Below are positions 13,021-13,109 of a stretch of 32,000 nt of DNA, one piece after another. This stretch comes from Candidatus Saccharimonadota bacterium (GTDB taxonomy: Bacteria; Patescibacteriota; Saccharimonadia; Saccharimonadales; UBA4665), in NCBI GenBank assembly GCA_016700375.1, contig CP065016.1, forward strand, positions 60,001 to 92,000. The letters run 5' to 3'. The notes beneath the pieces are model-generated. The model worked only from the letters and a program-made list of their open reading frames with translations. It was not told where the DNA came from and made no database searches. Both the position numbers and the translations under genes were made by a program. How positions within the stretch are numbered: position 1 is the stretch's first letter; the number at the start of each line of letters is the position of its first letter.

Positions 13021-13109
13021 GAGTCAAGAGTCAAGAGTCAAGAGTCAAGAGCACTGTCGCATCCTGCGAAGGACAATTCATGTCTCATGTCTCATGGCTC
13101 ATGTCTCAT
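13021..13109. repeat. paired 7-bp tandem arrays, locus H4
   Basis: Left arm is 4x GAGTCAA (13021-13048) followed by gag. A 26-nt spacer contains a degenerate GTCAT-type hairpin (gtcgcatcctgcgaaggacaat). Right arm is tcatgtc tcatgtc tcatggc tcatgtc tcat (13078-13109). The element lies inside the gat operon, just before the gatB SD. Confidence 0.8.

Follow-up and report, generated by a model that had tools for sequence, protein, structure and literature searches.

Paired heptanucleotide arrays and a relay reading frame at ATGA gene junctions of Saccharibacteria

Tandem arrays of heptanucleotide repeats recur at six loci (H1 to H6) of a 32,000-nucleotide stretch of the genome of a Candidatus Saccharimonadota bacterium (contig CP065016.1, positions 60,001 to 92,000, called the window below), and similar arrays occupy orthologous sites in other Saccharibacteria. 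At gene junctions they commonly form elements of two partly complementary arms separated by a loop, as in H4 upstream of gatB, and many such elements are crossed by an open reading frame (ORF), termed here the relay ORF, which starts at an upstream ATGA (or TAAATG) and ends at the TGA of a downstream ATGA. The reading that we favour, with about even confidence, is that the arrays are tolerated, self-propagating hairpins of the kind of long simple sequence repeats (SSRs) and short tandemly repeated repetitive (STRR) sequences, on which selection visibly preserves translation, rather than dedicated regulators.

The window was searched with Tandem Repeats Finder and with a lag-7 self-match scan at thresholds of at least 15/21, at least 16/21 and at least 18/21, using Markov shuffles for comparison. 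It contains seven lag-7 arrays at a self-match of at least 16/21, compared to 0.03 in the shuffles, and five at a self-match of at least 18/21, compared to none in 200 Markov shuffles; lags 5, 6 and 8–11 give zero or one array each in the scan at 16/21 or better, with no enrichment. The original prediction of period-7 arrays at six loci, in excess over shuffled sequence, is thereby borne out. Tandem Repeats Finder calls five of the loci, and H3, which is too degenerate for this program, is readable in the sequence, its right arm passing the 15/21 lag-7 test. Units are indeed shared between loci, and the arrays had rightly been set apart from clustered regularly interspaced short palindromic repeats (CRISPR), as the units are contiguous and 7 nt long compared to CRISPR repeats of 24–48 nt with unique spacers.

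Absence from all related genomes, which had been considered a sign of noise, is not what we found: the arrays recur at orthologous sites across relatives. The set of relatives comprised syntenic contigs and 80 loci around gatB from the Genome Taxonomy Database (GTDB), together 88 loci and 1.54 Mb of Saccharibacteria sequence. It holds 61 lag-7 arrays, compared to 0, 3, 1, 2, 0 and 1 at lags 5, 6, 8, 9, 10 and 11, respectively. When duplicate loci were removed first, 43 of the remaining 54 arrays were intergenic, where the intergenic share of the sequence is about 9%. On a tree of GatB, whose window copy is 98%, 93% and 88% identical to proteins of Ca. Saccharimonadales metagenome-assembled genomes, the arrays are confined to discrete clades. 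The clade of the window (clade A, six loci, ~0.13 Mb) has them and its sister L010 has none; the other array-bearing clades are L014 with L016, and L045, L067, L053, L047 and L050, with L074, L027 and L043 as singletons. Clade A has 308 period-7 trinucleotide runs; the lineages without arrays yield about 20 over 1.2 Mb.

The sites are shared between species, the sequences are not. Paired arrays occupy the spacer between orf139 and gatB in many species with unrelated units, the left and right arms being GAGTCAA and TCATGTC in the window, AGTAGTA and CTACTTA in L004, GCATGGA and CCATACT in L005, GAAATAT and CACTTTT in L014, and GAACAAT and GTTCATT in L016. The gatC–gatA junction likewise carries paired arrays with unrelated units in different species. 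Within coding sequence, a 33-nt stretch of gatA that encodes a hypervariable loop is occupied by (CCAAATA)x4.7 in L001 and (TCGAAAT)x4 in L005, with the protein length unchanged, and further arrays are found there in L011, L043, L067 and L074. The window has only a degenerate trace at this site, and the matching codons in relatives are perfect heptamer arrays. A loop of the M1 aminopeptidase carries inserts of differing sequence in the window, P0121, P0122 and P0123, and none in more distant homologues. H6, the insert of the window, is not intergenic: it is an in-frame part of the minus-strand aminopeptidase ORF, has one arm of period 8 and is translated as GGIKESRSRGVKGASSTSGHLQTTNYRLQTT. Against PDB 8sw0 and more distant Saccharibacteria homologues it aligns as an insertion in a loop.

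Regular spacing of short units would also suit an oligomeric protein that reads a motif every 7 nt on RNA or DNA. HutP recognizes UAG plus 4 nt in two sets, TRAP binds GAG repeats in the 5′ arm of a hairpin, and the omega repressor binds 7-bp DNA heptads. GAG/CTC is the commonest period-7 trinucleotide in the window and clade A (23 of 154 per strand). GAGNNAN describes five of the six loci, the variable positions differing even within single arrays, and copy number clusters at four to five. Furthermore, 16 of 19 Saccharibacteria pairs have the purine-rich arm on the 5′ side, an arrangement that resembles the TRAP design, where binding competes with the hairpin. However, GAG is absent from H2, from one H6 arm and from most arrays of other clades, in which GAA, AAG and AGT are the top period-7 motifs; the relatives contain about 33 different units, which are AT-rich (63% A+T) and without G-runs, and the window by itself has at least three unrelated unit families. 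Arrays in coding loops and in unrelated organisms also argue against a single cognate protein, and no candidate binding protein was seen among the window ORFs. We consider binding-site arrays to be decidedly unlikely. A single recognition motif was rejected, as the motif differs among arrays and clades. The heptads had been described as GAG-anchored, which holds for most window units (with CTC-type units on the opposite strand) but not for H2 (GGTATTT/AAATACC) or one H6 arm (GTAGTTT).

The junctions themselves link the arrays to translation. Among the 81 species examined, most have a 4-nt ATGA overlap between the orf139 homologue and gatB, whereas array lineages have a spacer of 94–151 nt, mostly 100–111 nt, at the same place. 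Filled junctions read ATGA(G)-element-ATGA and empty junctions a single ATGA; the four-base stop/start overlap is the ancestral state. The relay ORF is present in 15 of 25 array spacers versus 6 of 134 control spacers of comparable length. Array spacers keep the coupling frame open in 16 of 22 cases, compared to 30 of the 134 controls, and their other two frames are open in 0 of 22 and 4 of 22. All 11 distinct ATGA-flanked elements, 73–151 nt long, have a length equal to 1 modulo 3, and the L005 equivalent of the H4 relay ORF is annotated at source as a 37-aa gene. The open relay frame is what one would expect if ribosomes have to traverse the element for the downstream gene to stay coupled. 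A general avoidance of stop codons in arrays was considered and rejected, as stop trinucleotides number 70 in sense and 74 in antisense within 1260 nt; arrays as such do not avoid stops and the open frame is therefore specific to the relay frame. The complete genome CP064992.1 (loci L011 and L208) has many split genes, among them those for M1 peptidase, ClpB, NusA, SpoU and RNase HII, which suggests indel errors of assembly. This fragmentation makes frame-based conclusions unsafe, and the lack of relay ORFs in CP064992.1 was not scored as evidence. The longest Saccharibacteria arrays, (GAAAGTA)x9–10 at L014 514–582 and L016 2611–2682, are unpaired, contain TAG and lie in same-strand spacers without a relay ORF; they are a second, non-hairpin class of array.

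As 7 is not a multiple of 3, slippage of a single unit would shift the relay frame and could toggle the relay ORF and downstream expression, which would make the arrays contingency loci, as the original prediction had allowed. Heptamer SSRs are slippage-prone in principle, according to literature summarised in PMC4679880. Against this, unit numbers are identical in all four independent samples of the strain group of the window (the window, its 98% identical relative L001, L002 and L003) and in all three samples of the L005 group (L005, L006 and L007), which argues against phase variation. The comparison of unit numbers proposed originally thus revealed no polymorphism among near-identical strains, in a small sample, and variation only between species. 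H4 is the same in L001, L002 and L003 save one loop substitution. In addition, the arrays are associated with essential housekeeping genes (gatCAB, transketolase) and flank tkt, gatCAB, pfkB and aminopeptidase rather than surface or restriction-modification genes, and 11 of the 11 distinct ATGA-flanked elements stand in the "on" frame. Contingency is highly improbable.

The paired arms invite an explanation at the level of RNA, namely dedicated hairpins in operon messages that serve as signals of processing, stability or coupling, whether by RNase III-type cleavage between cistrons, as in the early region of phage T7, or by tuning the ratio of downstream to upstream protein. Stems of 22–30 bp and significant folds are seen at H2, H3, H4 and most orthologous elements of relatives (z = −3 to −9), complementarity is kept while the arm sequence changes completely between species, and position and length are conserved across independent clades. 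The 30-nt arms of H2 are 83% complementary and the RNA folds with −40.3 kcal/mol (z = −6.2) on the plus strand compared to −28.1 kcal/mol on the minus strand, the sense fold being the stronger because of G-U pairs. H3 has z values of −4.2 (plus) and −4.0 (minus) and an arm match of 20/22. The H4 arms are complementary at 22 of 30 positions, with a periodic mismatch, and fold with −35 kcal/mol (z = −2.2). The earlier expectations of partly complementary arms and long RNA stems therefore hold for these three loci and most orthologous elements but not for the others: H1, which is unpartnered, has no fold on either strand, the two arrays of H5 do not pair and show no fold, H6 has no significant fold (z = 0), and arrays in coding sequence likewise lack such structure.

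Several observations speak against a dedicated RNA signal. The fold is better in sense in 11 of 18 elements, and the L005 and L009 elements are better in antisense by 18–24 kcal/mol. The elements thus show no consistent bias towards sense, and selection acting on RNA structure is not established. Many arrays are unpartnered (H1, H5, the GatA loop), the gatC–gatA element was lost from the window without replacement, and a bare ATGA overlap suffices in most Saccharibacteria. Moreover, the stem would be melted by a ribosome on the relay ORF. Selection of the sense-strand RNA as a general rule was thus rejected, and so was sequestration of the Shine-Dalgarno region by the right arm, the pairing probability of which is the same as in control spacers (0.49 vs 0.50, p = 0.70). 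We regard intercistronic RNA signals as unlikely, though still to be reckoned with. The arms of one element commonly differ by one fixed substitution per unit, which indicates that homogenisation within an arm outpaces the matching of one arm to the other.

Comparison of close relatives exposes the turnover of these elements. The H3 spacer of L001 is wholly unrelated to that of the window. The gatC–gatA element is present in L001 and deleted from the window (11160–11175), and all clade relatives have a paired-array spacer of about 110 nt there; in the window the gatC TGA overlaps a GTG start (a remodelled GTGA overlap) and the GatA N-terminus reads MNRQPIAT instead of MSAWKPIAD. The GatA loop array is perfect in L001 but not in the window. 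At its left end the L001 gatC–gatA element matches H4 over 37 nt (TAAATGAGAG and the array); the right arms of the two are also of one type, and the loops differ.

Beyond Saccharibacteria, an exact scan for (GAGTCAA)x3.4 matched more than 120 metagenome contigs with a GC content of 0.30–0.69. Among 88 of these arrays, 34 have four copies, 16 three and 14 five. Of the 88, 17 have an inverted TTGACTC-like partner downstream and none has one upstream; the loops are unrelated in sequence and length. The relay ORF is found in four of nine same-strand spacers of this set; in L130 and L197 (GC ~0.62) the frame runs from just past the upstream stop, across the element, to a TGA that overlaps the downstream start. 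In the metagenome loci L088–L207, (GAGTCAA)n is often followed by other heptamer arrays, such as TCTGAAA x8 in L194; L201 has TAGTTTG units resembling H6 and L090 has TTAACTC units resembling H3. Inside long ORFs, (GAGTCAA)n occurs solely in the GAGTCAA-sense orientation (24 vs 0), as one would expect from the TGA in TTGACTC arrays.

Could the elements be mobile? Non-autonomous palindromes of the type of miniature inverted-repeat transposable elements (MITEs), REPINs (doublets of repetitive extragenic palindromes, REPs) or Rickettsia palindromic elements might insert at junctions and permissive loops with duplication of an ATGA target site. Filled sites do carry direct repeats of 4–6 nt, ATGA(G), compared to one copy at empty sites. 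The insert size is fairly constant at about 100–110 nt, the same sites are occupied in separate clades, and presence or absence differs between 98%-identical strains. Likewise, there are in-frame copies in genes, as with the Rickettsia elements, the fixed arm polarity recalls terminal inverted repeats, both arm types are common to H4 and the L001 gatC–gatA element, and (GAGTCAA)n is spread over metagenome contigs of very different GC content. However, no core is common to any two elements, and loops are unrelated even where arms match. The arms vary by locus and species over some 33 unit types, their units resemble the adjacent junction sequence, and the GatA loop array changes in place at constant length. 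No gene for the REP-associated transposase RAYT (Y1 transposase) was found among the window ORFs scanned, and the ends of the IS3-like and IS1595-like insertions of the window differ from the arrays. Mobility of this kind is, in our judgement, unlikely. A MITE with a conserved core was rejected, as inverted arms and an ATGA duplication are present but the loops are unrelated.

Several clues to the origin point to the junction itself. Arrays are enriched for ATGAG/CTCAT (7x) and AAGAG/CTCTT (9x), left-arm units often resemble the adjoining ATGAG junction, the gatA N-terminus of L067 reads ATGAGTCAA followed by in-frame (GAGTCAA)x3, and H5 has GGAGG directly before its ATGAGTC units. These observations speak for seeding from local sequence rather than for an import of foreign DNA, and copying from element to element guided by microhomology would fit them too. 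The tolerated, self-propagating hairpins that we favour would then arise as follows. In certain lineages a local 7-nt seed, very often ATGAG or AAGAG at a stop/start junction, would be multiplied to about four or five copies by DNA-level copying, likely replication slippage and template switching in a 7-nt register. An inverted copy would also be made, giving an imperfect hairpin of about 90–110 nt with a purine-rich arm 5′ on both strands. Turnover is visible by comparison: arms are homogenised internally, units change fast, and elements are replaced or lost between close relatives. Selection, to judge from the sequence signature, lets elements persist only where expression is unbroken: at ATGA overlaps a ribosome could initiate at the first ATGA, translate the element, terminate on the second ATGA and initiate again, elements in coding regions are found in variable surface loops, in frame, and others lie in promoter spacers. 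Persistence only where expression is unbroken makes the arrays most likely tolerated, self-propagating sequence.

Several points weigh against this account: (i) independent clades fill the same junctions with inserts of similar length, which suggests targeting or function and not blind mutation; (ii) copy number in the metagenome arrays peaks at four instead of decaying from the shortest class; (iii) the strict arm polarity (17:0 in metagenomes as well as the Saccharibacteria bias given above) is not predicted by simple slippage; (iv) copy number does not change among near-identical strains, which is odd for an active slippage tract; (v) the 37-nt left end common to H4 and the L001 gatC–gatA element would need ectopic conversion or a shared template; (vi) translation of the relay ORF is deduced from sequence; and (vii) the account names no generating enzyme. 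Four features keep a further reading alive, namely the preference for four to five units, a polarity that is fixed, an insert length that is constant and the refilling of junctions. In this reading the elements would form a class of their own, widespread and made up of translated inserts between cistrons that specifically colonise ATGA overlaps, with the relay frame preserving coupling, and that are written or spread by a dedicated mechanism such as a templated copying enzyme or a hairpin-specific recombinase. A dedicated writer, if true, would account for the arm polarity, the unit number, the constant length near 105 nt and the fact that separate clades filled the junctions independently. 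The combination of (GAGTCAA)n and (TTGACTC-like)n arms with relay frames from ATGA to ATGA or TGATG in the unrelated contigs L130 and L197 hints at a reach beyond Saccharibacteria. We take this possibility seriously while holding it to be unlikely.

The features of the window are compiled in Table 1. The layout of array, spacer and array that the original prediction had ascribed to all six loci applies to H2, H3, H4 and, formally only, H6, but not to the single array of H1 or the abutting arrays of H5.

Table 1 Arrays and relay ORFs of the window
Feature	Position	Strand	Composition	Tandem Repeats Finder calls	Setting
H1, single degenerate heptamer array	757..806	minus	GAGATAA/GAGTTAA/GAGTTAT on minus, CTC-type on plus; no inverted partner	768-798 (TCTTAAC x4.4, period 7); 757-798 (period 14)	divergent spacer, cytidylyltransferase-like gene (158-748, minus) / tktN (823-1677, plus)
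H2, paired array	1680..1753	plus	left arm (GTATTTG)x4, 1680-1709; 13-nt loop	1680-1708 (GTATTTG x4.1); 1724-1738; 1735-1753	between tktN and tktC
H2 right arm	1723-1753	plus	AGATACT/AGATACC/AAATACC/ATATACC		
Relay ORF across H2	1670..1771	plus	33 codons, MSKSIWYLVFGIWQIAAGLDTRYQIPYTQNGVK and stop		ATG within ATGAGTAA overlaps tktN stop; TAA overlaps tktC ATG (TAATG)
H3, paired array	5522..5652	plus	left arm GAGTCAA GAGATAT GAGGTAA GAGCTCA GAAATAG, 5522-5556		pfkB (stop 5509) to unknown 410-aa gene (start 5673); without relay ORF
H3 right arm	5607-5652	plus	CTC-type heptads, after 50-nt centre with small hairpin		
Degenerate period-7/14 tract	11908..11942	plus	TCAGATG ACAAAGC TCAGTTG AAAGATG TCAGAGT; weak alone		inside gatA
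H4, paired array	13021..13109	plus	left arm (GAGTCAA)x4 + GAG, 13021-13051	13020-13051 (AGAGTCA x4.6, 100% match); 13078-13109 (TCATGTC x4.6)	orf139 (12597-13016) to gatB (13124-14632)
H4 loop	13052-13077	plus	26 nt with small GC hairpin		
H4 right arm	13078-13109	plus	(TCATGTC/TCATGGC)x4.6		
Relay ORF across H4	13017..13127	plus	36 codons, MRVKSQESRVKSTVASCEGQFMSHVSWLMSHKETGL and stop		ATG immediately 3′ of orf139 TAA; TGA overlaps gatB ATG (ATGA)
H5, two abutting same-orientation arrays	25973..26031	minus	GGAGG, then ATGAGTC ATGAGAC ATGAGTC, then GAGTTAA GAGATAA GAGCTAT GAGTTAA	25973-26003; 26009-26031	between IS3-like and IS1595-like insertions
H6, paired arrays	31588..31676	minus	(GGAGTCAA-like, period 8)x4, 31676-31645	31588-31619 (period 7); 31645-31676 (period 8)	in M1 aminopeptidase
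H6 second arm	31619-31588	minus	(CTACAAA-like)x4.6, after 25-nt spacer		

In the divergent spacer of H1 we noted, by eye, a possible TATAAT −10 box at 807–812, for which the array would supply a TTAACT −35-like hexamer. H5 is orthologous to a CTCTTAW array upstream of rplS in CP064992.1 (L208 15583–15611). Between the pilus ATPase gene and rplS the window carries insertion sequences (ISs) at 24303–26899, namely an IS3-like element (orfA 25184–25441 and rve 24303–24962, minus strand) and an IS1595-like insertion (26093–26899, minus strand). H5 is probably the rplS-upstream array displaced by the IS insertions, because the syntenic L208 region is without IS and has retained the array directly upstream of rplS. 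The possibility that H5 is an end of the IS1595-like element was rejected, as no matching inverted copy was seen beyond the transposase gene by eye or in the lag-7 scan.

The genes of the window are, in order, a cytidylyltransferase-like gene (minus), tktN, tktC, class II aldolase, pfkB, the unknown 410-aa gene, LOG (minus), uvrB, gatC, gatA, orf139, gatB, nucleotidyltransferase, YtxH, NUDIX (minus), dnaE, CAP (minus), SpoU (minus), type IV pilus ATPase, the IS3-like and IS1595-like insertions, rplS, rnhB, GIY-YIG, UPF0102 and M1 aminopeptidase (minus). No covariance model matched at the gathering threshold in an Rfam scan of the window, and a tRNA scan of the window detected nothing. The 139-aa product of orf139, which stands between gatA and gatB, has no Pfam or NCBIfam match. 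Its homologues measure about 135–150 aa and are found in the same place in most of the 81 Saccharibacteria loci, usually with ATGA overlaps with both neighbours; the product could be an undescribed amidotransferase partner.

The window also carries other palindromes and repeats. The GTCAT hairpins are, as had been stated, separate from the arrays, and they form a REPIN-like repeat family: GTCATTCCCGCGAAGGCGGGAAT occurs twice (20777–20841 and 25556–25578, with 0 and 1 mismatch, none being expected by chance), and its first copy belongs to a REPIN-like doublet, whose 28-nt arms are 86% complementary and which stands between dnaE and CAP, two convergent genes. Directly 5′ of H3, a perfect 11-bp hairpin at 5494–5519, GTTGAATCGTT-TTAG-AACGATTCAAC, encloses the pfkB stop codon and is absent from L001, L004 and L005. 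Within the RNase HII coding region, a near-perfect palindrome at 28416–28469 with 22-nt arms, 95% complementary, and an 8-nt loop (CGTGAAAGCTCCGACCTTTCAC / GTGAAAGGTCGGAACTTTCACG) may be another in-frame palindromic insert. Period-12/15 repeats at 27429–27492 (GCCAAAGAAGCCGAA, AAAGCCGCCGAA) encode the Lys/Ala/Glu-rich C-terminal tail of ribosomal protein L19.

Heptanucleotide repeats have been a bacterial oddity since 1990, when STRRs were described, and since the long-SSR census of 2007. In Saccharibacteria their birth, turnover and loss can be traced site by site, from the bare ancestral ATGA to the differing elements of sister lineages. They indicate that streamlined genomes of the candidate phyla radiation (CPR), of about 1 Mb, also accumulate repeat DNA, and they show where it is affordable. 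The relay ORF amounts to a natural experiment on translational coupling, in which the frame and both ATGA ends are maintained although the sequence is free to vary. There are practical consequences as well: gene callers annotate relay ORFs as small proteins, as in L005, assemblies break in arrays (contig L003 begins inside one and many metagenome matches lie at contig ends), and the elements can serve as sensitive strain markers.

Integron attC core sites, DNA uptake sequences, primase sites and GAGTC restriction sites were also considered and dropped, since the units are too diverse. According to the accounts in PMC4679880 and PMC4692102 of the census by Mrazek (2007), heptanucleotide repeats are the most abundant class of long SSRs in many prokaryotes, with polymerase slippage over a 7-nt footprint as the suggested cause; the cases that the two papers mention include the STRR repeats of Calothrix and Anabaena. 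The Saccharibacteria arrays are, by analogy, the counterpart of the long SSRs and STRRs of cyanobacteria, Xanthomonas, Burkholderia and Beggiatoaceae. Both consist of tandem 7-nt units in few to about ten copies, with period 7 favoured over all others, and both are intergenic and lineage-specific, lie between the same genes in relatives with variation in sequence and length, and include some inverted pairs. The arrays described here differ in their CPR host, in having many unit families per genome compared to one to three dominant units, in their regular two-arm hairpins of fixed polarity, in their position at ATGA overlaps with a relay ORF and in their in-frame coding copies. The units of STRR1–3 of heterocystous cyanobacteria, CCCCAGT, TTGGTCA and CAACAGT, have no match among the approximately 33 Saccharibacteria units. 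The host, the multiplicity of units, the two-arm layout with fixed polarity, the relay ORF at ATGA overlaps and the in-frame copies are not reported in the papers on heptanucleotide repeats cited here, and a full-text search of an incomplete collection found no paper linking Saccharibacteria with such repeats; the layout appears to be undescribed.

Individual systems share some of these traits. TAACTGA direct repeats of marine Beggiatoaceae, cyanobacteria and Bacteroidetes stand in two to six copies just 5′ of start codons, including those of essential operons, and a role in translation is suspected (MacGregor 2015, PMC4679880). They consist of one fixed unit with stops in all three frames and no predicted fold (PMC4679880), whereas the Saccharibacteria units vary, form hairpin pairs and leave one frame open. 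The intergenic arrays of GGGAATC in Xanthomonas and GGGGA(T/C)T in Nostoc, some of them inverted, lie between the same gene pairs in related species and vary extensively in sequence and length (Rehm et al. 2015, PMC4692102). Their units are G-rich and quadruplex-forming (PMC4692102), in contrast to the AT-rich units here. REPINs, or REP doublets, are intergenic hairpins of about 100 nt with two short inverted arms and a spacer, dispersed in the genome (Bertels and Rainey 2011, PMC3116915). Their arms belong to a conserved family tied to the RAYT transposase, whereas the arms described here are tandem heptamers of many kinds that differ between loci and species. The Rickettsia palindromic elements of Ogata et al. 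(2000) reportedly measure about 100 nt and lie between genes or in frame within them, where they are said to be tolerated as surface-loop insertions. The likeness is one of behaviour only, seen in the in-frame copies (H6 in the M1 aminopeptidase and the GatA loop arrays): the Rickettsia elements have a conserved family consensus and no internal 7-nt periodicity, whereas our copies have no conserved family consensus and only the architecture in common, the M1 loop inserts of the window, P0121 and P0123 differing completely. In translational coupling by termination-reinitiation, finally, a stop codon overlaps the next start as ATGA or TAATG. The relay ORF reproduces this stop/start overlap at both of its ends, with the difference that what stands here between two real genes is an ORF of about 35 codons of arbitrary, fast-changing sequence.

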